DNA of 64,000 bases from Candidatus Kerfeldbacteria bacterium (lineage in GTDB: Bacteria; Patescibacteriota; Patescibacteriia; UBA10025; JAHIVO01): the NCBI GenBank assembly GCA_047946875.1, contig CP181398.1, positions 1,064,409-1,128,408 of the forward strand. The letters run 5' to 3'. Both the position numbers and the translations under genes were made by a program. Shown here piece after piece: positions 6,487 to 57,941 of the stretch. Numbering within the stretch: position 1 is the stretch's first letter; every line of letters begins with the position of its first letter. The notes beneath the pieces were generated by a model. It saw nothing but the letters and a program-made list of their open reading frames with translations, did not search any database and had not been told where the DNA came from.

Positions 6487-7178
6487 AATCTAAATCATTC
6501 ATTTTTTTAATAATATCTATATTAATATTAATCTTAATATTGGGATATTTATTTATTATAATAAATAATAATAACTACTTCAGCAAGGAAGGTGTGGTTT
6601 TGGGTAATTATAAAGAAATTGAAGAAATTAAATTTCCACCTAATAGTACTATTGAAATTAAACAAGAAATATATAGTCGCCTTGACAATTTAGGTAAGAT
6701 AATAATTTCTCTTAGAACAAATAAGCTTATCATCTTGGATTTAAAATTAAAAAATAAATCTGATAATCAAATTATTAGACAAAAAAGTATATCAACAAAA
6801 TTAACTAATGGCGGTATAGAAATATTAGAATGGATAATAGACCCAATTTCTAATTCTAACAATAAAGATTATATATTACTTATTAGCACATTATCTAGTT
6901 CTGATTTGATATTTTATACGGTCGAACCCGAAAGATATGATGGTGGCAGTTTAATAATTAATAATAAAATTAATGATGATAGCCGAATAATAGTTGATTG
7001 GGAATATTATACCGCAAATCCTCTACAAATAATTTATCATTATCTTCCATTTTATAAGCCTGAAATATTTAATAATGCAGCAACTTATATTATATTAACT
7101 ATATTATTCTTTACTCTTCAAACATTAATAACATGGGAAATATTAAATATATTTCTTAATAAAAATGATGAGAACTAG
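6453..7178 (+). CDS. Hypothetical membrane-anchored protein
   Basis: N-terminal hydrophobic segment (FIFLIISILILILILGYLFII) and a C-terminal hydrophobic segment. Overlaps the previous ORF. Start uncertain. Confidence 0.35.
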   Translation: MGNNPSKILFIKSKSFIFLIISILILILILGYLFIIINNNNYFSKEGVVLGNYKEIEEIKFPPNSTIEIKQEIYSRLDNLGKIIISLRTNKLIILDLKLKNKSDNQIIRQKSISTKLTNGGIEILEWIIDPISNSNNKDYILLISTLSSSDLIFYTVEPERYDGGSLIINNKINDDSRIIVDWEYYTANPLQIIYHYLPFYKPEIFNNAATYIILTILFFTLQTLITWEILNIFLNKNDEN

Positions 7179-8079
7179 TTCCAAAATACTTCAAAAAATA
7201 GGTCAAATTCTAATATATGTAGTTATATTTATTTTTATTGGGAAAATACTTTCAAATAATTGGTCAGACATTTCAGTATCTTTAAAATCAGCAAATTATT
7301 TATTACTACTATCAGGAATATTTCTAATAGTACTAATTTTATATTTACAAAGTTACATTTGGCATCTTCTACTTAAACAATCAAATAATACTCTAAAATT
7401 TTCTGCTTCATTTATTACCTATTTCAAATCAGTTATTACTAGATACCTTCCGGGTGGTATATGGGTATATTTTGCAAGAACATACCTTACGGGTAAACTA
7501 GGTTTTAAAAAAACCCAAATTATTTTTTTGATTCTTATTGAATCGCTTTTTGTAGTTGCCACTGGATCCATATCAATATTATTATTTCAGCCGCCTTCGG
7601 ATATATATATCATCATTGCAATTTTATCTATCATACTTACAATTACTGGATTTGTTTTTATTTTTTCACCTTCTTTTTTTATTAAGATTTATAAAACTTT
7701 CTACAACAAAATACTATCAATTATTCCCCTAAATAGGCAAACCATAGCTAAAGCAACTTCTCTATATTTTATTTTATGGATATTATCTGGATTATTTTTA
7801 TATATTATTATTAACGCTTTTACTCCACTCGGTGTAGATAACATTCCATCATTAATTGGTATTTATGCAATAAGCTGGGTAGTTGGATTCGTTGTATTTT
7901 TTATGCCCTCAGGGATTGGTGTTAGAGATGTTTTTTTGATTATTTTACTAAGCACTATTGTCAGTGTACCAATCGCCACATTAGTTGCATTGATAGCAAG
8001 AATAGTATTCTTGATAGGTGAGATAATTTGTTTTTTTATAAGCTTAATTATTGAAAAAAAACATCCCTTACCAAATTAG
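7165..8079 (+). CDS. Flippase-like membrane protein (UPF0104 / LPG-synthase-TM-like)
   Basis: About 8 TM helices and the motif YLPGGIWVYFARTYL, which matches the lPggiGe..R signature of this family as I recall it. This family is often found with glycosyltransferases. Confidence 0.5.
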   Translation: MMRTSSKILQKIGQILIYVVIFIFIGKILSNNWSDISVSLKSANYLLLLSGIFLIVLILYLQSYIWHLLLKQSNNTLKFSASFITYFKSVITRYLPGGIWVYFARTYLTGKLGFKKTQIIFLILIESLFVVATGSISILLFQPPSDIYIIIAILSIILTITGFVFIFSPSFFIKIYKTFYNKILSIIPLNRQTIAKATSLYFILWILSGLFLYIIINAFTPLGVDNIPSLIGIYAISWVVGFVVFFMPSGIGVRDVFLIILLSTIVSVPIATLVALIARIVFLIGEIICFFISLIIEKKHPLPN

Positions 8080-44198: not shown

Positions 44199-45575
44199 TT
44201 ATTTATTGTATAGACGTTGTCTGATTAGATTAATATCTTGTCTAATTTTTTCATCTTTATCTAAACATTTTTTTATTTTTTCATAAGCATGCATAGCGGT
44301 TGTATGGTCACGTCCACCTAATTCTTGTCCAATTGTTGGGTAAGAACATTTAATCTCTTCTCTTAATAAAAACATTGCTATCTGTCTAGGAATAACGAGT
44401 TCTTTTTTACGACTACTACCTAGTAAATCATCTTTTGGTTTATCAAAAAAAGAAGCAACCATATTAATAATTTGTTTTGTTGTAATTGCGCTGTCACGAT
44501 GTTTGTAGCTGGATACACTGCTAAGAATATTTTTAACAGATTCAACGCTAGGAGCTGTATTGTTAAGCTGATGAAAGGCAATTATTCTATTTAAAGCCCC
44601 TTCTAGTTCACGAACATTACTTTGTATATTATTAGCAATAACAGCAATTATATCAGCATTAAGCTGGTGGTCTTTCTCTTTACATTTTGCGTTTAATATT
44701 GCAATTCTTGTCTCATAGTCAGGTAAATTAACGTCTGCAATCATTCCCCACTCAAAACGAGAAATAAGCCTATTTTCAAGTGCAGGAATTGCTTTTGGCG
44801 GACGATCAGAACTAATTACTATTTGTTTATTTTGTTGATGTAGGGCATTAAAAGTATGAAAAAACTCTTCTTGTGTTCCCTCTTTTCCTGCCAAGAATTG
44901 AATATCATCAATAAGTAATAAATCGGCAGTCCGGTAGGTGTTTTTAAATTGTTCGGTACTACCCTGACTAATGGATTTAATAAAATCATTAGTGAATTTT
45001 TCGCATGTTACAAAAATTACTTTTTTGTCAGGGCTCTTTTCTGTTATACTGTGGGCAATTGCTTGTAGTAGGTGAGTTTTTCCTAGTCCAGATCCTCCAT
45101 ATATAAATAATGGATTATAAACCTCTCCAGGGCGCTCTGCTACGGCTAGACAGGCGGCGTGAGCAAGTTCATTTCCCTTACCTACAATAAAACTTTTAAA
45201 AGTATTTGAATTATTAAAACCCGAGCCGTTTTTTACAGCATTAGTAGAAGAATTAGTGTTAGAAGAATCTAAAACAACTTCAGTTTTTGTAACCGGGGTT
45301 TTTGATTCTTCTTTTTGTTTGTTTGAATTAGTTTCTACTTGGTATGTAGCTTCGGATATTTTATTATTAGTTGCATTTTGTAGCGATTGTAATATCTCTT
45401 TATGATATTTATTTTCTAACCAGGTTTTTGTAAAAGCATTTGGTACACCAATAACAATTTTATTATTTTCAAGTGATGAAATAAAAGTATTTTTAAACCA
45501 TGTGGTGAAATTTGCCTTACTTAGAGAGAGCTCTAATTCACCCAAGGCGGCTTGCCAGAGTTGTTCTTTATTCAT
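44199..45575 (-). CDS. dnaA: Chromosomal replication initiator DnaA
   Basis: GGSGLGKTHLLQAIAH (Walker A), LLIDDIQFL, C-terminal DNA-binding …GRDHTTAMHAYEKI. Confidence 0.95.
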   Translation of the reverse strand: MNKEQLWQAALGELELSLSKANFTTWFKNTFISSLENNKIVIGVPNAFTKTWLENKYHKEILQSLQNATNNKISEATYQVETNSNKQKEESKTPVTKTEVVLDSSNTNSSTNAVKNGSGFNNSNTFKSFIVGKGNELAHAACLAVAERPGEVYNPLFIYGGSGLGKTHLLQAIAHSITEKSPDKKVIFVTCEKFTNDFIKSISQGSTEQFKNTYRTADLLLIDDIQFLAGKEGTQEEFFHTFNALHQQNKQIVISSDRPPKAIPALENRLISRFEWGMIADVNLPDYETRIAILNAKCKEKDHQLNADIIAVIANNIQSNVRELEGALNRIIAFHQLNNTAPSVESVKNILSSVSSYKHRDSAITTKQIINMVASFFDKPKDDLLGSSRKKELVIPRQIAMFLLREEIKCSYPTIGQELGGRDHTTAMHAYEKIKKCLDKDEKIRQDINLIRQRLYNK

Positions 45576-45708
45576 ATGAATAATAAATTGTTATTAACGA
45601 AATTTTGAGTACAAAGTATATATTACCATATTAACTATAATTAAAATATATAGAATACTTGATAATATGTGTATAAATTGTTAATATCATGTGGGTATAA
45701 TTTATAGA

Positions 45709-45737
45709 TTGACCCAGTGTTTTATTATTGATATAAT
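45709..45737 (+). promoter_or_regulatory. Sigma70-type promoter TTGACC-17-TATAAT for rpmH, inside the rpmH-dnaA spacer (putative oriC region 45576..45764)
   Basis: Read directly. The spacer also holds box-like TGTGTATAA and TGTGGGTAT. Confidence 0.5.
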
Positions 45738-45764
45738 GCATTGTAATTAAGTAAACTTTTATAT

Positions 45765-45902
45765 ATGCCAAAAAGAACCTATCAACCAAAAACAAAGCAA
45801 CGAAAAACAAAACACGGTTTTAGAAAGAAAATGCAGTCTAAAAGTGGGCAAAAAACTATTGCCAGAAGAAGAGCAAAAGGAAGAAAGAAATTAGCTTCAT
45901 AA
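45765..45902 (+). CDS. rpmH: 50S ribosomal protein L34 (not in the supplied ORF track)
   Basis: [45 protein letters not shown], classic L34. 45 codons. Confidence 0.9.
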
Positions 45903-45908
45903 TATTTT

Positions 45909-46253
45909 ATGTTGCCCAAAGAAAGGCGTATTGTTAAGCTGTCTGAGTGGAATAAACTACATAAGCGTGGTATTGGAGCTCATTCTGCTGAAATAGTATT
46001 GAAATATATTAAAAATAATACCAAAATTACTCGCTTTGGTTTTATTGTAAGCACTAAGATTAGCAAAAAAGCAGTAGATAGAAATTTGATTAAAAGAAGA
46101 ATGCGAGACGTGATAGAAAAGAAATTATCAAATATTAAAGAAGGTTACGATGTTATCTTAATTGCTAAAGTGAAGATAAAAAGTAATAATTATTCCGAAA
46201 TTGAACAAATGATTAATCAACTTTTAAGAAAAGAAAGGTTGTTAACCAGATAA
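45909..46253 (+). CDS. rnpA: RNase P protein component
   Basis: …RFGFIVSTKISKKAVDRNLIKRRMRD…, the conserved RNR motif. Position after rpmH. Confidence 0.85.
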   Translation: MLPKERRIVKLSEWNKLHKRGIGAHSAEIVLKYIKNNTKITRFGFIVSTKISKKAVDRNLIKRRMRDVIEKKLSNIKEGYDVILIAKVKIKSNNYSEIEQMINQLLRKERLLTR

Positions 46254-46511
46254 ATGTTTAAAATAATTAGAAAATTAATAATACAAGTAGTTTTAAAGCT
46301 TATAAAGTTCTATCAAAAGACCTTATCGCCAGATCATGGATTTTTCTCTTATAAGTACCCATATGGCTATTGTCGGTTTCGGCCAACATGCTCAAATTAT
46401 ACTTATCAAGCAATAGAAAAATACGGTTTATTGAAAGGCGGATGGATGGGAATGAAAAGAATAATTCGTTGTAATCCATTAAATCAAGGGGGAGAAGACC
46501 CAGTAAAATAA
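46254..46511 (+). CDS. yidD: Membrane protein insertion efficiency factor YidD
   Basis: …[19 protein letters not shown]…. Confidence 0.85.
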
Positions 46512-46518
46512 TAAAAAT

Positions 46519-47322
46519 ATGATTGTAGATATATATAATTTAGTACTATTTGAACCACTTTTTAATGCTTTGGTTTTTATTTATAATTATATCCCAAATT
46601 TGGGAGTAGCAATTATTATATTGACCTTGATTATCAAGTTTATTTTGTATATCCCCTCTCGATCATCTATAACTTCTCAAAAAAAACTACAAGAAACTCA
46701 GCCAAAATTAAAAGCTATACAAGATAAATACAAAAATAATAAAGAAGAGCTTGGTCGGCAGTTGATGAAATTTTATAAAGATAATAAAGTAAATCCTTTT
46801 TCTTCTTGTTTGCCATTATTGCTTCAACTTCCTATATTAATTGCCCTATATAGGGTATTTTTAGCTGTTGCTCAAACAGACCCTAGTACTTTTATTTTAG
46901 TTGATGAACAAATACAGCATTTATATGAACCAATGAGGGAAATATTTAGTTCAAAAGCTATAAATCCATTCTTCTTTGGTGAATTTGCACTTGCTGATTT
47001 GTCCAAAACAGGAAATTTTGTTCTAGCTGCAATGGCTGGGGCTGCTCAATTTTGGCAGTCAAAGATGTTGATGAGTAAAAAACCACCACAAGTCCCTGGA
47101 GCTAAAGATGAAAGTATGATGGCAGGTATGAATAAGCAAATGACTTACTTTATGCCACTAATTACAGTATTTTTTGCATATCAATTTCCTGCAGGATTAG
47201 CCTTGTATTGGTTTATTTCCACATTGTTTTCAGCACTACAACAACTCTATTTATTTAGGAAAGATAAAAAACCAGAAGTAGAAGTAATATCTAATGATAC
47301 TAAAAAAACAGGACATAATTAA
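46519..47322 (+). CDS. yidC: YidC/Oxa1-family membrane insertase (short form)
   Basis: 5-TM core. …GLALYWFISTLFSALQQ. Synteny. Confidence 0.85.
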   Translation: MIVDIYNLVLFEPLFNALVFIYNYIPNLGVAIIILTLIIKFILYIPSRSSITSQKKLQETQPKLKAIQDKYKNNKEELGRQLMKFYKDNKVNPFSSCLPLLLQLPILIALYRVFLAVAQTDPSTFILVDEQIQHLYEPMREIFSSKAINPFFFGEFALADLSKTGNFVLAAMAGAAQFWQSKMLMSKKPPQVPGAKDESMMAGMNKQMTYFMPLITVFFAYQFPAGLALYWFISTLFSALQQLYLFRKDKKPEVEVISNDTKKTGHN

Positions 47323-51172: not shown

Positions 51173-53695
51173 TTATATTAGTTTTTTTAATTTTTCCTGT
51201 TGTTCTTTGAGTTTTTCTCTTTCTTTTTCAATAATATTATTTGGTGCATGGGCAACAAAATTTTTATTAGAAAGTTTATTTTCAATTGTTTGGATATATT
51301 TTGATATATTTTGGATTTCTTTGTTTATTACAGACTCGTCTTGTTCATAGTTAATATAATAATCAAGGCCAGGTAGAGTTCCTGTTGTGTCTGTACTTTT
51401 TTTATTTATAATGGATTTAATTTTACTTAATTTTTGTATAATAACTAGATTTTTATCTATGGTTTTAGATTTTTTACCCCAATAAAATACATTAAGTTTA
51501 GTTTTTGGGGAGATATTATTTTCTGCTAAAAAATTTCTTAGATTAGTGATAAATTTTTTAGTAAATTCAAATTCTGTTTCTGCTGAATTATTTATTAAAG
51601 TTTTGTCTTGTTGTGGCCAGTCTTGGATAATTAACATTTGTTCTTTTTTTGTACCAATCCAACGTGACCATATCTCTTCAGTAATAAAAGGAATAAAAGG
51701 ATGGGATAATTTTAGAATATTTTCTAATACATAATATAAAAGTGGGATATTTTTTTCTTCTTTTGAAATTTCTATATACCAATCAGCAAAGTCAGACCAC
51801 AAAAAATCATAAATTTTTGTACCTGCTTCAGAAAATTTCATATCTTCTAAATTTGTTGTTGTTTCTTTAATTAACCACTGAAGTTTACTTAGAATCCATT
51901 GATCAGAAATGGATACAGGTTTAACTTTTGTCTTTTTAGGGTATGGATTGGTGAATATGTATCTTGAAACATTCCAAAGTTTATTAATATAATTTCGGAA
52001 ACCCGCAATTTTTTCTTCAAAAATTCTAAAGTCTTGACCCACAGAAGTACCTAATGTTAAGGACAATCTGATAGCATCAGTCCCGTATTTTTTAGTCATT
52101 GGGATCGGATCAATACCAGTACCTTTTGATTTAGACATTTTTTTACCATCTTTGTCTAAAACAAGTCCGTGTAGGTATACTTTTTCGAATGGAATTTCTT
52201 TTGTAAAATATAAGCTCATCATTACCATCCTAGCAATCCAAAAAAATAGAATATCCCAACCAGTCTCCATTACCGAAGTTGGGTGAAAAGTTTTTAAATC
52301 TTTAGTTTTTTTAGGCCATCCTAATGTAGAAAAAGTCCAAAGGCCAGAAGAGAACCAAGTATCTAATGTATCAGTATCTTGTACCCAGCCTTTGCCGGAC
52401 GGTTTTGTAACGGAAGCTTTTACTTTATCACCATTATACCAGATTGGTATTGGGTGTCCCCACCATAATTGGCGAGAAATACACCAATCTTTAATATTTT
52501 CCATCCAGTAAAAATATACTTTCTCTTCACGTTTTGGATATATTTTTATCTTTCCATTTTTAACAACCTCAATTGCCTTTTTTGCTAGTGGTTTTGTTTT
52601 GATAAACCATTGTTTTGATATCAGGGGTTCGATTGGTGCTTTACACCTTTCACAACGAGAAACATTGTGTTCGTATATTTTAGTTTTGATTAATAACCCC
52701 TCTGCTTCTAATAATTCTAAAATATCATGTCTAGCTTGTTGGACACTAAGACCATAAAAAACTCCAGCCTCTTTAGTCATTTTGTTGTCTTGTCCAATTA
52801 CATTAATAATTTTAAGTTTATGTTTTTCTCCTAATTCATAATCGAAATGATCATGAGCAGGAGTAACTTTAACAGCGCCAGTTCCGAATTTCATATCTAC
52901 TTGTTTGTCTGTGATAATAGGAATTTCACGATTTGTGATAGGTAAAATTATCTTTTGGCCGAGGTATTTTTTGTATCTCTTGTCGTCTGGATTTACGGCT
53001 ACAGCAGTATCCCCCAACATAGTTTCTGGCCTAGTAGTTGCAACAGTTATATATTTTGTACTACCCGCTAATGGATAGCGCAAATACCAAAGTTTACCAG
53101 TAGTAGCCTGATGTATTACTTCTAAGTCTGAGAGGGCAGATGAACATCTAGGACACCAATTAATAATTCTATCACCATGGTATATCAGTCCGTCGTTATA
53201 CATTTTGATAAAGGCAGTTTGGACAGCGACAGTCATTGTTTCGTCCATTGTGAAATGTTCGCGTGACCAATCACATGAAGTGCCAAGTTGTCTTATTTGT
53301 TTAGTAATACGACTACCATATTGTTTTTTCCAAGCCCATACTTTTTTTACAAACTTATCTCTTCCTAACGTATGACGATCAAGACCACTTTTTTTAATTA
53401 GTTTTTCTACCATTACTTGCGTACCGATACCAGCATGATCAGTGCCAGGAATATATAAAACTTTTTCTCCTTGCATACGATGATATCGAGCCATAATATC
53501 TTCCATGGTCATTCCGGTTGCATGCCCTAAGTGGAGTTCTCCTGTAACGTTTGGTGGGGGCATAGCAATACTAAAAGATTTGGTTCTTTTACCTGGTAGA
53601 TTATCTGGATTAAAATACCCTGATTTTTCCCATTTGGAATAAATTTGTGATTCAACGTTATTTGGTTGGTATGCTTTGGATAATTCTTCGGTCAT
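51173..53695 (-). CDS. valS: Valyl-tRNA synthetase
   Basis: PNVTGELHLGHA (HIGH) and KMSKSKG. C-terminal coiled coil. Confidence 0.95.
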   Translation of the reverse strand: MTEELSKAYQPNNVESQIYSKWEKSGYFNPDNLPGKRTKSFSIAMPPPNVTGELHLGHATGMTMEDIMARYHRMQGEKVLYIPGTDHAGIGTQVMVEKLIKKSGLDRHTLGRDKFVKKVWAWKKQYGSRITKQIRQLGTSCDWSREHFTMDETMTVAVQTAFIKMYNDGLIYHGDRIINWCPRCSSALSDLEVIHQATTGKLWYLRYPLAGSTKYITVATTRPETMLGDTAVAVNPDDKRYKKYLGQKIILPITNREIPIITDKQVDMKFGTGAVKVTPAHDHFDYELGEKHKLKIINVIGQDNKMTKEAGVFYGLSVQQARHDILELLEAEGLLIKTKIYEHNVSRCERCKAPIEPLISKQWFIKTKPLAKKAIEVVKNGKIKIYPKREEKVYFYWMENIKDWCISRQLWWGHPIPIWYNGDKVKASVTKPSGKGWVQDTDTLDTWFSSGLWTFSTLGWPKKTKDLKTFHPTSVMETGWDILFFWIARMVMMSLYFTKEIPFEKVYLHGLVLDKDGKKMSKSKGTGIDPIPMTKKYGTDAIRLSLTLGTSVGQDFRIFEEKIAGFRNYINKLWNVSRYIFTNPYPKKTKVKPVSISDQWILSKLQWLIKETTTNLEDMKFSEAGTKIYDFLWSDFADWYIEISKEEKNIPLLYYVLENILKLSHPFIPFITEEIWSRWIGTKKEQMLIIQDWPQQDKTLINNSAETEFEFTKKFITNLRNFLAENNISPKTKLNVFYWGKKSKTIDKNLVIIQKLSKIKSIINKKSTDTTGTLPGLDYYINYEQDESVINKEIQNISKYIQTIENKLSNKNFVAHAPNNIIEKEREKLKEQQEKLKKLI

Positions 53696-53783
53696 AAAAA
53701 TATAGTTGACTAAATCTCAAAAAAGAGTTAATTTGCAGTAATATTGTACCATTTGTTCATTTATATTAGAAGAGAGGAAAAGA

Positions 53784-54224
53784 ATGATAAAAGAGTTTAA
53801 AGATAGTTTTGCACAAAATCAACCTATCTCATGGCCTTTGTATATATTTTTTGGCTATATATTATTGCCTATGGCTTGTTCTCTGAGTTTAATGTTAATG
53901 TTGCGACTATTCGGCAACATGCGATTTAATCAGTTTAGTTGGGATATGGTATTATGTAGCGTAATAGGATCAACTATAGGTATATGTATTTCATCAATTA
54001 TTTTGCTAGATAAAAGAAGAAAAGCAAATAAAGAGACGATTATATCTATATTGAGTGATTTGAATATTGAATGTAGCAAGAAATACAAATTTTGGTTTGA
54101 ATGTCCTGCCTGTGGTAAGGTTTGGGATCCTGATATTGCCCCGGCAAATAATTTATGCCCAATAGATTTTATTCCTTTAAAAAAGATTGACCCAGTAGAA
54201 AGGGATCAGTTCGAAGATTTATAA
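53784..54224 (+). CDS. Hypothetical membrane protein with C-terminal Cys pair (ECPACG…CP)
   Basis: Two TM segments. No family recognised. Confidence 0.4.
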   Translation: MIKEFKDSFAQNQPISWPLYIFFGYILLPMACSLSLMLMLRLFGNMRFNQFSWDMVLCSVIGSTIGICISSIILLDKRRKANKETIISILSDLNIECSKKYKFWFECPACGKVWDPDIAPANNLCPIDFIPLKKIDPVERDQFEDL

Positions 54225-54246
54225 GTCTTGTTACAATATGTAATAG

Positions 54247-54498
54247 GGCTTTTTATTTTACTAATTCCCAATTTGGATCAGCATCGAGTTTTTTCCAATC
54301 AGAAAAATCTTTTTGTTTTGCATGGTGATATCCAGCGATGGCAATCATCGTGGCATTATCAGTACAAAGCTTGAGAGGAGGATAGTGATACTTAGTATTA
54401 GGGAGTTCTTTGGTGACAGCTTGTCCTAGTTGTTCTCGTAGAGGTTTGTTTGCCGCTACACCACCAGCCAGGAGGACTGTTTTAATTTTAAGTTTTTT
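54247..54498 (-). pseudogene. Orphan duplicate of the 3' end (last ~75 codons plus stop) of tsaD; left arm of a perfect ~250-bp direct repeat
   Basis: 54251-54497 is base-for-base identical to 55768-56014 as far as I can read. That stretch is the C-terminus of tsaD, …PLKLCTDNATMIAIAGYHHAKQKDFSDWKKLDADPNWELVK*. Confidence 0.8.
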
Positions 54499-54690
54499 TT
54501 CTGTTTTGCGATGTCTGAAATTTTTCTTTGACTATTTTTTTGTATTCATAAATTATAGTATACTGAAAAAATACACTAAGAACATGTTATTGAGGTTTTA
54601 TTGGATTTTAAGTATATGGTAGACTTAATAATATTAACGCAAATATATTTAGTATAAAATATATATTTATTGCAAAGTAAAAGAAAAAGT

Positions 54691-55713
54691 ATGAACGATT
54701 TATCAAAAATAAATATTGATTATAAAACTACCCGCAATACTTCAAATAAGCCAATATTTCATACGGCGTCTTTAGATGATACTCTAACAAAATTTTCGTA
54801 TGAAGCTAAATTATTAAAAAATGGTCAAAACGAACTAGATGATTTTATTAAAAATGGGGGGCTTGAAAATTTCAAAAGAATATTTATTATTATTAAAAAA
54901 ATTCTTAAATTATCACCTTTAAGATTAGGTGTATATTTAGTTAATAGACATGCTTTAAAAAATGTATATATAGACGCTTTAAAATTAATCCAAGAAGTAT
55001 TAGAAGTATTAAGTATTAAATTACAAAATAATAAAATTAGGATAGTAAATAATTCTTGGAATTATCGGGAGGTAAAGAAAATGATTAGTTTTGGAGAATA
55101 TGTTGCATGGTATCTCCAGGCACTTGATAATATGTATACAATAGAGATGTTATCAAGTTATTATTATTCAATAGTTGGTAAGAATAGTAATGTTACTTCA
55201 AGATTTTTTAATTTATTTTTTCGATTTCCTGAAAAGATAATTAGAAAATTGTTTGGTATGAGTTATATAGCACATAGATCAGAATCACGATTTGAAAAAA
55301 AATTTAGACTGGTAACAGGAAGAGCTAATAAATTATTATTTAAATCATTATCTAATAGAATAAATGAAGAAGAAATATTACTAAATTTTAAGAAGCATGT
55401 TCAAAGATTAAAAGTTAAAAATGAGATTATTCAATTTACTTTGGAAAAACCATGGAGAGCTAGAAGAATGCTATCAAGGGGATTTGCAATAATTTCTGTT
55501 TCTATTGCTTTGGTACAACAATTTATATATAAAGGAGATTTTATTGTTTTAATGGAAATATTATTTTCAGGATTGGCAATTGTGTTAGTGATAAATTGGG
55601 TACCATATTTTATTAAAGTGGGGGTTGATAAGTTTGCCTATAAAAATCTCAAGTCAATAAATCATTCGAGAAAAAAAATTGAATTATATTTTACTATTAA
55701 AAAGAAATTCTAA
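54691..55713 (+). CDS. Hypothetical AT-rich protein with C-terminal two-helix membrane module; cargo of the insert between the tsaD repeats
   Basis: ATG 54691 (MNDLSKINIDYK). About 250 aa of soluble, Lys/Asn-rich N-domain. C-terminal GFAIISVSIALVQQFIY and FIVLMEILFSGLAIVLVINWVPYFI helices. No homolog recognised. Confidence 0.55.
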   Translation: MNDLSKINIDYKTTRNTSNKPIFHTASLDDTLTKFSYEAKLLKNGQNELDDFIKNGGLENFKRIFIIIKKILKLSPLRLGVYLVNRHALKNVYIDALKLIQEVLEVLSIKLQNNKIRIVNNSWNYREVKKMISFGEYVAWYLQALDNMYTIEMLSSYYYSIVGKNSNVTSRFFNLFFRFPEKIIRKLFGMSYIAHRSESRFEKKFRLVTGRANKLLFKSLSNRINEEEILLNFKKHVQRLKVKNEIIQFTLEKPWRARRMLSRGFAIISVSIALVQQFIYKGDFIVLMEILFSGLAIVLVINWVPYFIKVGVDKFAYKNLKSINHSRKKIELYFTIKKKF

Positions 55714-55760
55714 AAACAAACCAAAACATTCGTTTTCCCTTCCGTTATGGTATATAAAGG

Positions 55761-56014
55761 GGGCGTTTTTATTTTACTAATTCCCAATTTGGATCAGCAT
55801 CGAGTTTTTTCCAATCAGAAAAATCTTTTTGTTTTGCATGGTGATATCCAGCGATGGCAATCATCGTGGCATTATCAGTACAAAGCTTGAGAGGAGGATA
55901 GTGATACTTAGTATTAGGGAGTTCTTTGGTGACAGCTTGTCCTAGTTGTTCTCGTAGAGGTTTGTTTGCCGCTACACCACCAGCCAGGAGGACTGTTTTA
56001 ATTTTAAGTTTTTT
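55761..56014. repeat. Right arm of the ~250-bp direct repeat (within intact tsaD 3' end)
   Basis: See the 54247..54498 feature. Identity starts at the tsaD stop codon region and ends about 82 codons upstream of the stop. Confidence 0.8.
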
Positions 56015-56791
56015 AGCAGCTTTGATAGTTTTTTTGACTAAGACGTCGACGGCAGCTTGTTGAAAGCTAGCAGCTATATTATCGACGGGGACGTTTTTAT
56101 TGTTAAATTGTTTTTTAACAAGATAAAGAACGGAGGTTTTCAGACCAGAAAAGCTAAAATCAAAATTATTTTGGTTTATCATTGGGCGCGGAAATTTATA
56201 ACTATAGGGATCACCCTTTTTAGCTATTTTTTGAATCATTGGACCGCCCGGATAGCCAAGTTCTAATAATTTTGCTACTTTATCAAAAGCTTCTCCAACC
56301 GCATCATCACGAGTTTGACCGATTAACTTATAATTATTATGTTTCTTTATTTCAATTAATTCTGTGTGACCTCCAGAGACAACTAAGCAAAGTGCTGGTA
56401 ATCTTAAATTTGGATTTTCATACCAATTAGCATAGATATGTCCTTCCATATGATTTAATCCTACAATTTTTTTGTTCCAGGTAACACTTAATGTTTTTGC
56501 AGTCTGTACTCCAACTCGAAGTGAGGTAATTAACCCAGGCCCTTTAGTTACCGTAATATTAGAAATATCTTTTGGTGTTATTTTTGCTTTTGTAAGAGCA
56601 GTTTCTAAGACGGGAATAATATTAACTACATGTTCTCTTGCGGCTACTTCTGGAACTACTCCGCCATATTTTTTATGAGTTTTGATCTGTGATGCTACAA
56701 CGTGTGACAGAATTTCAAAACGACCAGCCGTGGCCTTGACCACACTGATAGCTGTTTCATCACAAGAAGATTCAATTCCTAGAATTATCAT
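55769..56791 (-). CDS. tsaD: tRNA N6-adenosine threonylcarbamoyltransferase TsaD (Kae1/Gcp family)
   Basis: MIILGIESSCDETAISVV…. The metal-binding HxEGH region reads NHMEGHIY. Confidence 0.9.
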   Translation of the reverse strand: MIILGIESSCDETAISVVKATAGRFEILSHVVASQIKTHKKYGGVVPEVAAREHVVNIIPVLETALTKAKITPKDISNITVTKGPGLITSLRVGVQTAKTLSVTWNKKIVGLNHMEGHIYANWYENPNLRLPALCLVVSGGHTELIEIKKHNNYKLIGQTRDDAVGEAFDKVAKLLELGYPGGPMIQKIAKKGDPYSYKFPRPMINQNNFDFSFSGLKTSVLYLVKKQFNNKNVPVDNIAASFQQAAVDVLVKKTIKAAKKLKIKTVLLAGGVAANKPLREQLGQAVTKELPNTKYHYPPLKLCTDNATMIAIAGYHHAKQKDFSDWKKLDADPNWELVK

Positions 56792-56880
56792 ATTATTATT
56801 GTAACATAAAAGGGGCTTTTTTTATTTACTATTGACTCTCACCTATTAGCTTAATTCTACTCGTTCAAATCCTTTAGCTC

Positions 56881-56908
56881 AAAAAAGCTTATATATAGTT
56901 ATAAGCTT
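56881..56908 (-). terminator. Hairpin terminator downstream of tRNA-Glu (minus strand)
   Basis: AGCTTATA-loop-TATAAGCT, then T6 on the minus strand. Confidence 0.5.
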
Positions 56909-56929
56909 ATTTAGGTAATAAAAATGGAT

Positions 56930-57006
56930 TGGTAGCGCCAAGGGGATTCGAACCCCTGTTACCACATTGAAAGCGTGGTGTCCTGACCAAGCTAGACGAT
57001 GGCGCC
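56930..57006 (-). tRNA. tRNA-Glu (anticodon UUC), CCA encoded
   Basis: The reverse complement GGCGCCATCGTCTAGCTTGGTCAGGACACCACGCTTTCAATGTGGTAACAGGGGTTCGAATCCCCTTGGCGCTACCA folds as a cloverleaf. Anticodon loop CTTTCAA, T-loop TTCGAAT. Near-colinear with E. coli tRNA-Glu. Confidence 0.9.
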
Positions 57007-57017
57007 TTATATATTTA
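56994..57017. repeat. Left direct repeat AGACGATGGCGCCTTAT(atattta), covering the 5' end of the tRNA-Glu gene
   Basis: The 17-bp perfect core is repeated at 57313-57329, and about 20 of 21 bp match including the flank. Confidence 0.6.
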
Positions 57018-57312
57018 TTTACTCAATTAAGTTGTTTTAGTTGTTTACGAAGTAGCCCTGATTTTTTAATTTGTTGTTCCCTTTTACGAGTATCTGTTTT
57101 ATTCAAGAATTTTTCAATTTTAACTAATTTATAAGGTATATATGATTTTGATGAACTTACATTGCCATTATTATGCTCTTTGATTCTTCGATTAACATTA
57201 TTAGTACTCCCTATGTATAATCTACTATTTTTTATGCTTTTAAGAATATATACGTAATACATAATTATATTATTATCAAGCTTCCGGCATAGCCGGATCA
57301 GGCTCTGCCTGA
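57018..57312 (-). mobile_element. Mini-insertion carrying a GIY-YIG nuclease gene, bounded by ~20-bp direct repeats
   Basis: About 300 bp between the repeats. It contains only the 79-aa GIY-YIG ORF plus two short GC hairpins (CCGGC-ATA-GCCGG, TCAGGC-TCT-GCCTGA) in its 5' leader. Confidence 0.5.
57023..57262 (-). CDS. Small GIY-YIG-domain nuclease (UPF0213/YhbQ-like)
   Basis: YVYILKSIKNSRLYIGSTNNVNRRIKEHNNG matches GIY…YIG…R…E.H.G and is colinear with E. coli YhbQ ([30 protein letters not shown]). Confidence 0.8.
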   Translation of the reverse strand: MYYVYILKSIKNSRLYIGSTNNVNRRIKEHNNGNVSSSKSYIPYKLVKIEKFLNKTDTRKREQQIKKSGLLRKQLKQLN

Positions 57313-57336
57313 AGACGATGGCGCCTTATGTATATT
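57313..57336. repeat. Right direct repeat AGACGATGGCGCCTTAT(gtatatt)
   Basis: Partner of 56994..57017. Confidence 0.6.
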
Positions 57337-57375
57337 CTATGGGTTTAAAAAAATATTAACTTAAATTACATGATT

Positions 57376-57420
57376 AGTCAACCCCGCCCTGCTTAATGGG
57401 AGTGAGGTTAGCAGGCGGGG
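57376..57420. other. Isolated GC-rich stem-loop flanked by TCAACC direct repeats in the AT-rich hsp20 upstream region
   Basis: CCCCGCCCTGCT-16nt-AGCAGGCGGGG (11 bp, one bulge). GTCAACC lies immediately on both sides. Confidence 0.4.
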
Positions 57421-57491
57421 TCAACCATATTGTTTAAAAGCTATATTTATACTATAATAATTATACAAATAAATTTTATAAAAATATAATC

Positions 57492-57941
57492 ATGAGTAAA
57501 CAAATATCAACAAAAAATTCAAAAACAATCAGCAATAACTCAACAATAGACAAAGAAATTGATTTAAATAATCCTCAAAATGAGGAATGGATGGATGATG
57601 ATGATTTTTCTGGTCAGTTGGCAGTAGACGTTTATCAGACAAAAGATGACATAATAATTAAATCTACTATTGCTGGGGTAAGGACAGAAGATATTGATAT
57701 TGCAATTAATAATGATATGATCACTATTCGTGGGAAAAGAGAAAAAGAACACGAAATTATTGAAGATAATTATTTCTATCGGGAATGTTATTGGGGAGGT
57801 TTTTCCAGATCAATAATTCTTCCGGTGGATGTGAAATCTGACAAAGTAAAGGCAAATATGAAAAATGGTGTTCTTACAATATCTTTGCCTAAGGCAGATA
57901 AAGTTAACAAAGTGACTGTAGTCAAGGTTAAAGAGGAATAA
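57492..57941 (+). CDS. Hsp20/alpha-crystallin small heat-shock protein
   Basis: Alpha-crystallin domain …LAVDVYQTKDDIIIKSTIAGV…GVLTISLPKA. Confidence 0.9.
   Translation: MSKQISTKNSKTISNNSTIDKEIDLNNPQNEEWMDDDDFSGQLAVDVYQTKDDIIIKSTIAGVRTEDIDIAINNDMITIRGKREKEHEIIEDNYFYRECYWGGFSRSIILPVDVKSDKVKANMKNGVLTISLPKADKVNKVTVVKVKEE

Follow-up and report, generated by a model that had tools for sequence, protein, structure and literature searches.

How does a single gene come to lie between two copies of the 3' end of tsaD in a genome of Candidatus Kerfeldbacteria, and what might its protein do there? The gene, here called ORF340, is annotated by NCBI as a hypothetical protein in its 340-aa form (XOU94253.1/ACNFW9_05410) on a 1.31-Mb contig of a Candidatus Kerfeldbacteria metagenome-assembled genome (MAG). 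An earlier sequence-only reading had described it as the cargo of an insert and, speculatively, as an effector of the kind found in abortive infection and other conflict systems. We analysed the 64-kb stretch of DNA that holds the gene, which is referred to as the window throughout, and compared it with independent assemblies, with the corresponding loci of relatives, and with protein, structure, phage and metagenome collections. The explanation that we favour as a whole is that ORF340 is an orphan membrane-hairpin gene, the sole cargo of a repeat-bounded unit that is exchanged by homology; for this reading taken together, our confidence and our doubt are about equal. The features on which it is built are collected in Table 1.

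Table 1. Features of the tsaD insert and of ORF340, in window coordinates.
Feature	Coordinates	Strand	Remarks
orf146, TM + zinc-ribbon protein	53784..54224	+	native tsaD neighbour in the empty allele
Left repeat copy, displaced tsaD 3' fragment	54246..54498	-	253/254 identity to 55761-56014
Unique segment B, 1262 nt, about 24% GC	54499..55760	.	no inverted ends
Layout of segment B			192 nt upstream region, ORF340, 47 nt downstream
ORF340, orphan CDS, 340 aa, 40.2 kDa, pI 10.1	54691..55713	+	predicted all-helical
C-terminal hydrophobic hairpin, residues 264-306	55480..55608	+	Kyte-Doolittle and Hessa-scale scans
Basic C-terminal tail, residues 307-340	55609..55710	+	sequence, pI 10.2
Right repeat copy, 3' end of intact tsaD	55761..56014	-	
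Intact tsaD, 340 aa	55769..56791	-	Pfam TsaD, E = 1.3e-98

ORF340 begins with an ATG at 54691 and ends with a stop codon at 55711-55713; an in-frame TTG at 54670 is an alternative start that would yield 347 aa. The reading frame is free of stops for 351 codons; when the insert was shuffled 2000 times, the stop-free run averaged 64 codons and never exceeded 152. GC content declines across the codon positions (GC1 > GC2 > GC3, 0.31/0.26/0.16), and the synonymous codons are host-like, ORF340 being among the most host-like genes of the window in this respect. Because the stop-free run lies far beyond the shuffles, and because of the codon-position trend and the host-like codons, ORF340 is a genuine gene, or was genuine until very recently. 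It was previously considered the only gene in the insert, and this holds: the other ORFs confined to 54499-55760 are all of 32 aa or less, while ORFs of 33 and 25 aa begin in the last 82 nt of the unique segment and extend into the right repeat. The gene had also been described as more AT-rich than its neighbours. It is, with a GC content of 24.2% against 36.3% for tsaD, 32.1% for valS and 31.5% for orf146, and the deviation is a modest one, at -1.7 SD relative to the genes of the window, three others of which have 22-26% GC. As a sign of foreign origin the composition of ORF340 is weak, codon usage and GC both falling inside the host range. A scan around the insert revealed no promoter-like or terminator-like sites above the shuffled expectation, and no significant hairpin lies 3' of ORF340. 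A Shine-Dalgarno sequence is missing at ORF340, as at most genes of the window, and is uninformative.

The tsaD repeat reported earlier around the insert is real: 54246-54498 and 55761-56014 are identical at 253 of 254 positions, 249 nt of them in a perfect run, and form the sole long near-perfect repeat pair in the 64-kb window. The repeat covers the final 81 codons of tsaD and its stop codon, and runs on for another 8 nt. Its left copy is headless, without the upstream part of tsaD, and its in-frame translation ends ...KKLKIKTVLLAGG...DPNWELVK*. The tsaD protein itself is unchanged by the insert. At the outer edge of the repeat, the 13-bp terminator hairpin of orf146 (54223-54251, z = -3.4) overlaps the left copy. 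Past the repeat borders similarity is not significant, either in the inner flank (p = 0.02) or in the outer flank (p = 0.76), so that there is no sign of a foreign tsaD end carried in by an element.

We also searched for the machinery by which such an insert could be moved. No inverted repeats were found at the insert ends, no integrase or recombinase domain in the insert or its immediate neighbours, no matching transposase family, and nothing beyond trivial tandem repeats or iterons within the insert; Rfam returned only tRNA-Glu for 53600-57500. An insertion sequence or transposon was rejected, there being neither transposase nor terminal inverted repeats, and the duplication measuring 254 nt instead of a short stretch. 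The template and variable repeats of a diversity-generating retroelement (DGR) were rejected as well, in view of the identical copies and the lack of a reverse transcriptase.

The arrangement has a counterpart without the insert. Exact-protein look-ups of tsaD and orf146 led to a JGI contig of 4433 nt (3300083231, Ga0675942_0037281; L082/L084), in which window positions 57736-55761 run straight into 54498-51788; the repeat is present once, and both flanks are 100% identical to the window. What it lacks is exactly segment B plus one repeat copy (1262 + 254 = 1516 nt). On this contig, which is of the same species, tsaD joins the next gene directly and encodes the identical protein. Because exactly segment B and one repeat are absent between identical flanks, ORF340 is the sole cargo of a 1516-nt presence/absence polymorphism in one Candidatus Kerfeldbacteria population, and this polymorphism is very recent. 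The pair of filled and empty alleles is a new result that goes beyond the sequence-only reading. In principle, the JGI contig could be the product of a collapsed repeat. The database records argue that it is a real empty allele, because ORF340 is on record from NCBI sources only, and tsaD and orf146 are on record from JGI as well. An exact-DNA scan for the repeat core gave 0 matches in a collection of metagenome and viral contigs that excludes the JGI sample of the empty allele.

Support for the filled allele comes from a 1361-nt contig (L001) of an independent short-read NCBI assembly, which consists of segment B at 100% identity, extended on either side by 47 nt of the repeat. The 31-kb contig that carries L083, likewise from an independent short-read NCBI assembly, breaks off 47 nt into the repeat. 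The placement of the insert in the chromosome rests on one 1.31-Mb assembly, and the 1361-nt contig fits a free 1516-nt circle equally well. Together with the existence of an empty-site contig, this agrees with an assembly artefact, in which a free 1.5-kb circle or a variant from another strain was threaded into the chromosome via the shared 254 nt. However, such a circle would still need a perfect copy of the 3' end of the host tsaD, which implies integration and excision in the past. ORF340, moreover, has no features of a replication initiator, with no HUH motif and no match to a Rep family; a rolling-circle Rep was rejected. The flank contig with L083 stops just inside the repeat, which is what two coexisting paths in the sample would produce. 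We consider the artefact decidedly unlikely.

The relatives of this genome indicate what the locus may have looked like before. In the closest genomes, tsaD is 61-70% identical. In five loci (L003, L005, L007, L008 and L010), valS is the next gene after tsaD, 17-123 nt away. In six others (L002, L004, L006, L076, L009 and L011) 0.3-4.4 kb of unrelated, mostly orphan ORFs lie between tsaD and valS, and in L076 a homologue of orf146 occupies the equivalent position. L004 has a direct repeat of its own, 31 nt of the tsaD 3' end including the stop codon, in two copies that agree at 29 of 31 positions, both differences being synonymous; these lie 937 nt apart, around a different insert of 0.9 kb. 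Among the 80 relatives surveyed, L004 is the only one with a duplication of the tsaD 3' end. The tsaD-valS junction thus appears to be a recurrent insertion spot in the clade. Since no relative has the insert and the adjacency of tsaD and valS seems to be ancestral, ORF340 was probably gained recently in one lineage. The surroundings are otherwise core housekeeping DNA about 10 kb from dnaA, with rnpA, yidC, tsaE, a DHH protein, pilB, valS, tsaD, tRNA-Glu and a small GIY-YIG gene, and further hsp20, DUF3006, a VanW-domain protein, NIF3 and ruvB.

As to the mechanism, we propose that the 1516-nt unit would come and go by recombination inside the 254-nt repeat. Entry would be a Campbell-type integration of a circle, exit would be a loop-out by host homologous recombination, and within the species the unit may spread by ordinary homologous (allelic) replacement after DNA uptake. 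Cultivated Patescibacteria have been shown to be naturally competent and to carry out homologous recombination (PMC10633639). Had a foreign element introduced a diverged tsaD end of its own, the two copies would differ, and their perfect identity speaks against such an origin.

The main rival to homology-driven exchange is a decayed or trans-mobilised integrative element, which we regard as possible but rather unlikely. The insert would then be a remnant or satellite of a site-specific element targeting the tsaD 3' end, similar to e14 and phage 21 at icd, where the element supplies the 3' end of the gene and leaves a 163-bp icd' fragment (PMC6379469, PMC13626634). An ancestor that bore an integrase would have supplied the tsaD 3' end and later been reduced to 1.3 kb, with ORF340 as leftover cargo; in a variant of this idea, a non-autonomous unit would be moved by an integrase acting in trans. 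It is in keeping with such an origin that the duplicated 3' end spans the stop codon plus 8 nt and leaves the host gene intact, as e14 does with its icd' fragment (PMC6379469, PMC13626634). The 31-nt tsaD 3' repeat around another insert in L004 suggests recurrent use of the site, and the tsaD-valS gap is variable among relatives. Yet neither the insert nor its immediate neighbours have an integrase or recombinase domain, and the insert departs from the e14 type in this, since the only ORF of more than 33 aa has no recombinase match. The copies are identical over 249 nt, not diverged as in e14 and icd, the similarity does not extend significantly beyond the repeat on either side, and the present indel unit is exactly the repeat plus segment B.

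A more ambitious version of the homology-driven reading may be formulated. The 1516-nt unit would be an integrase-free minimal mobile cassette, composed of one orphan gene and a 254-nt homing arm copied from the tsaD 3' end. Jointly with this, its traffic would be due to host homologous recombination only, tsaD would stay intact, the unit would spread in a CPR population with natural competence, and ORF340 would found a new membrane-acting family that pays for its upkeep, for example by the exclusion of phages or foreign DNA. We find this joint reading quite unlikely, and return here to the plainer exchange by homology, whose cargo remains to be described.

The ORF340 protein is basic, with 59 K+R against 28 D+E. 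It had been called rich in Lys and Asn, and its contents of K (11.5%) and N (7.9%) are indeed considerable, although they are ordinary for this genome, within one SD of the window proteins (K 9.4 +/- 3.4%, N 6.0 +/- 2.1%). The architecture was proposed to be a soluble head followed by two closely spaced transmembrane (TM) helices at the extreme C-terminus. This outline roughly holds: what is predicted is a helical, cytoplasmic head of about 255 aa with a TM hairpin near the C-terminus, and both hydrophobic segments resemble TM helices in the prediction, one of them marginally so. TM2 is clear (residues 284-304, Kyte-Doolittle 2.47, summed Hessa-scale dG about -1.6 to +0.15); it may also be drawn as about 284-306, and it contains E289 and N302. 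TM1 is marginal (residues 264-280, Kyte-Doolittle 1.5, dG about +3.8). The close spacing stands, the turn between the two being YKG(D), 3-4 residues in the local reading F-I-Y-K-G-D-F. On the other hand, the helices are not at the extreme C-terminus, as a basic tail of 31-34 residues follows them, with 9 K, 1 R, 1 D and 1 E in its last 32 residues.

TM1 is preceded by a net charge of +5 and TM2 followed by one of about +8 in the tail of 31-34 residues, and the turn has a charge of 0. On the positive-inside rule, these values predict that the hairpin is N-in/C-in and that the tail is cytoplasmic. Polar residues occur in both TM helices (S269, S271, Q276, Q277, E289 and N302), and one guess, as yet unproven, is that they would suit an oligomer. 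An amphipathic helix is located at residues 167-188. ORF340 has no internal repeats, and a motif search for HUH, GMN and integrase box-like patterns came back empty. AlphaFold single-sequence predictions made the full protein all helix with a pLDDT of 43.6, and residues 25-256 reached a pLDDT of 51.5; we regard both models as unusable.

ORF340 is a strict singleton and a lineage-restricted orphan. A word-indexed HMMER search of 5.8 billion clusters at 90% identity and an exhaustive phmmer search of 1.84 billion representatives both recovered only ORF340 itself. Against Pfam, with E up to 10, the full-length protein had no match, and the N-terminal 255 aa and the C-terminal 140 aa gave nothing credible and no CorA. 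PADLOC (E up to 1) returned 0 families, PHROGs nothing credible (best E = 0.13), and NCBIfam nothing credible. Among PDB sequences (phmmer, E up to 10) the only matches had an E of 1 or more, without CorA. No relative was detected in IMG/VR and JGI metagenome contigs by back-translated pattern scans and tblastn, nothing significant in phage and plasmid records by tblastn, and no relative by tblastn in 0.83 Mb of relatives' loci (80 loci) or in the rest of the window. The earlier judgement that the protein has no recognisable family is therefore confirmed for Pfam, PADLOC, PHROGs, NCBIfam and PDB, none of which offered a benign family either. The fold search that had been suggested was carried out with Foldseek against the PDB, on a poor model of pLDDT 44, and found no significant match, the best E being 0.26.

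What ORF340 might do can be narrowed to some extent. Judging from its predicted topology, it would act within the membrane or on the cytoplasmic side. It could not serve as an adhesin on the cell surface or mask a receptor there, since only the turn of 3-4 residues could be exposed outside. A class II holin was rejected: such holins are proteins of under about 150 aa with two TM helices in N-in/C-in orientation, encoded beside the endolysin in a lysis cassette, and ORF340 has 340 aa with a 255-aa head, no nearby lysis genes and no PHROGs match below E = 0.1. The strain-variable location is the one fact that leans to an accessory or conflict role, and such a location is equally expected of any gene derived from a mobile element. 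ORF340 may accordingly be pictured as an accessory membrane protein of mobile-element origin that serves in phage or foreign-DNA exclusion or in abortive infection, a suggestion to which we attach a low probability. Exclusion of phages or of incoming DNA ranks first among the functional classes considered for it, and is at best a doubtful assignment.

The more specific proposal, and the one closest to the sequence-only reading, is that ORF340 is a stand-alone effector of abortive infection or defence, whose head senses infection and whose two-helix tail depolarises or permeabilises the membrane. The head plus TM-hairpin architecture is present, polar residues lie within both TM helices, and the gene is strain-variable. 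A cytoplasmic head with two TM helices at the C-terminus is known from defence, for instance in the CRISPR-associated CorA, a membrane effector that is activated by SAM-AMP (PMC10600005). But PADLOC gave no match with E up to 1, and the Pfam search, SLATT included, gave 0 families. The insert holds no sensor or partner gene, and no defence genes are nearby: PADLOC found no defence system among the neighbours, its matches there being generic AAA and GIY-YIG overlaps (DnaA, RuvB and the small GIY-YIG gene). A singleton family offers no guilt by association, and the survey of homologue neighbourhoods for links to defence had no homologue to work on. We therefore hold a stand-alone effector to be unlikely.

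The CorA family deserves to be considered in its own right. ORF340 could be a very divergent oligomeric cation channel of the CorA/MIT type, a superfamily with a pentameric funnel fold. The cytoplasmic domain would form the funnel and the polar TM1 would line the pore, followed by the hydrophobic TM2 and the basic tail. Both proteins have about 340 aa, with a cytoplasmic N-terminal domain of about 250-290 residues ahead of two TM helices and a short basic tail at the C-terminus, so that size and domain order match. The CorA-type topology, N-in/C-in with a large cytoplasmic domain, is also what is predicted for ORF340, TM1 being marginal, and its TM1 is the more polar and its TM2 the more hydrophobic helix, as in CorA. 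Chains of CorA and Mrs2 recur among the top Foldseek matches (ranks 1, 3, 4, 5, 8, 19, 21, 24 and 31). Nevertheless, none of these matches is significant: on a model of pLDDT 44, no E value is below 0.26, no TM-score exceeds 0.24, and the rmsd is 20-29 A. The Pfam CorA family (PF01544) was unmatched with E up to 10, as were the CorA sequences in the PDB. The hallmark of CorA is a GMN motif, rarely GVN or GIN, at the outer end of TM1. None of the three occurs in ORF340, whose turn between TM1 and TM2 is only YKGD. ORF340 differs from the CRISPR type III-associated CorA also in its surroundings, with no CRISPR or signalling enzyme near it. A CorA-like channel seems very unlikely to us, and the resemblance would be one of architecture only, an analogy.

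Mobile elements and the movement of accessory genes are poorly known in CPR/Patescibacteria, and the tsaD locus provides a clean case from nature: within one population, the 3' end of an essential gene is found with and without a single orphan gene, which is gained or lost there with no visible recombinase. If the exchange is driven by homology, tiny cassettes can circulate in reduced, competent genomes. If ORF340 proved to be a membrane effector or a channel, it would define a new family; its singleton status leaves it without predictive value at present.

Several known systems resemble the locus in part. Morons and superinfection-exclusion ORFans are likewise single, strain-variable genes of lower GC than their neighbours, which encode membrane-anchored proteins without a family. 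Unlike them, ORF340 has no prophage context and no phage homologue, and it would be almost wholly cytoplasmic. For the repeat structure, Campbell integration and loop-out are the nearest in form, sharing the order homology-insert-homology, the sharp repeat borders without transposon or integrase signatures, and an empty allele that equals the loss of one repeat and the insert. Most known cases of Campbell-type integration involve engineered suicide plasmids, or plasmids and episomes that integrate. The present unit is unlike these cases in being a natural single-gene unit of 1.5 kb without an observed circular form, and we know of no described class of natural 1.5-kb single-gene units with a 254-nt arm from an essential gene. 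In e14 and phage 21 at icd in Escherichia coli, as here, the insert lies between direct repeats of a housekeeping gene's 3' end, the gene is intact, and a displaced 3' pseudo-fragment (icd'/icdC) lies on the far side; excision there restores a single copy (PMC6379469, PMC13626634), and the counterpart here is the exact conspecific empty site. The repeat measures 254 nt here against 163 bp for icd', and e14 spans 15 kb, encodes an integrase and an excisionase of its own and has a diverged copy of icd, whereas the tsaD insert has 1.26 kb, one gene that is not a recombinase, and identical copies. The architecture of the tsaD insert is thus a variant of the known duplication of a gene's 3' end by integrating DNA, and the finding is a neat but modest one.

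In a related Patescibacteria genome (L004), whose tsaD is 66% identical, the 3' end of the gene, stop codon included, is duplicated as a 31-nt direct repeat. The two copies agree at 29 of 31 positions, both differences being synonymous, and they enclose an insert of about 0.9 kb (repeat copies and insert together, 6991-7958). Two short ORFs of 94 and 71 aa, both orphans, lie in this insert, in which no integrase was found. The gap between tsaD and valS is tight in five relatives, at 17-123 nt, and in others (L002, L004, L076, L006, L009 and L011) the same junction holds unrelated cargo of 0.3-4.4 kb. The cargo in L002 includes an MBL-fold protein, for which a match to Anti-Pycsar Apyc1 stayed below the 50-bit cut-off (E = 2.7e-5, 24 bits).

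Coordinates of features around tsaD and valS in the window and in loci from relatives
Feature	Sequence	Position	Strand
tsaD-valS cargo region	L002	7017-11405	
tsaD-valS cargo region	L004	7017-9676	
tsaD-valS cargo region	L076	7017-7957	
ValRS with in-frame insertion	L076	7957-10860	
ValRS with in-frame insertion	L006	7325-10225	
orf146 and terminator hairpin	window	53784-54251	
Stand-alone GIY-YIG gene, 79 aa	window	57023-57262	-
tRNA-Glu	window	56930-57006	-

As a separate observation, ValRS of L076 and L006 contains about 130 extra residues, inserted in frame past residue ~428 and including Cys-rich stretches; these proteins measure 967 aa, vs 840 aa for the window ValRS, which is without the insertion.

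Across the insert from tsaD, orf146, the native neighbour of that gene in the empty allele, encodes two N-terminal hydrophobic helices followed by a C-terminal CxxC...C zinc-ribbon-like segment. No family was assigned to it, and in L076 the equivalent position is occupied by a homologue. The terminator of orf146, a 13-bp hairpin at 54223-54251 (z = -3.4), reaches into the tsaD repeat at its outer edge. In the NCBI locus tags, orf146 (ACNFW9_05400) is followed directly by the 340-aa cargo gene (ACNFW9_05410); from this gap, the skipped tag 05405 probably belongs to the displaced tsaD fragment (54246-54498), which the NCBI annotation would then list as a pseudogene. Because dnaA, rnpA and yidC (44199-47322) are located ~10 kb away, the insert locus lies near the probable replication origin.

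Within the window, direct repeats of 21 nt, at 56994-57014 and 57313-57333 and 20/21 identical, lie on either side of the GIY-YIG gene; the first copy comprises 8 nt upstream of tRNA-Glu together with tRNA-Glu nucleotides 1-13. Both the gene and its bracketing repeat are also found on L082, the conspecific contig with the empty site. This arrangement looks like another small insertion beside tsaD, i.e., a second one.
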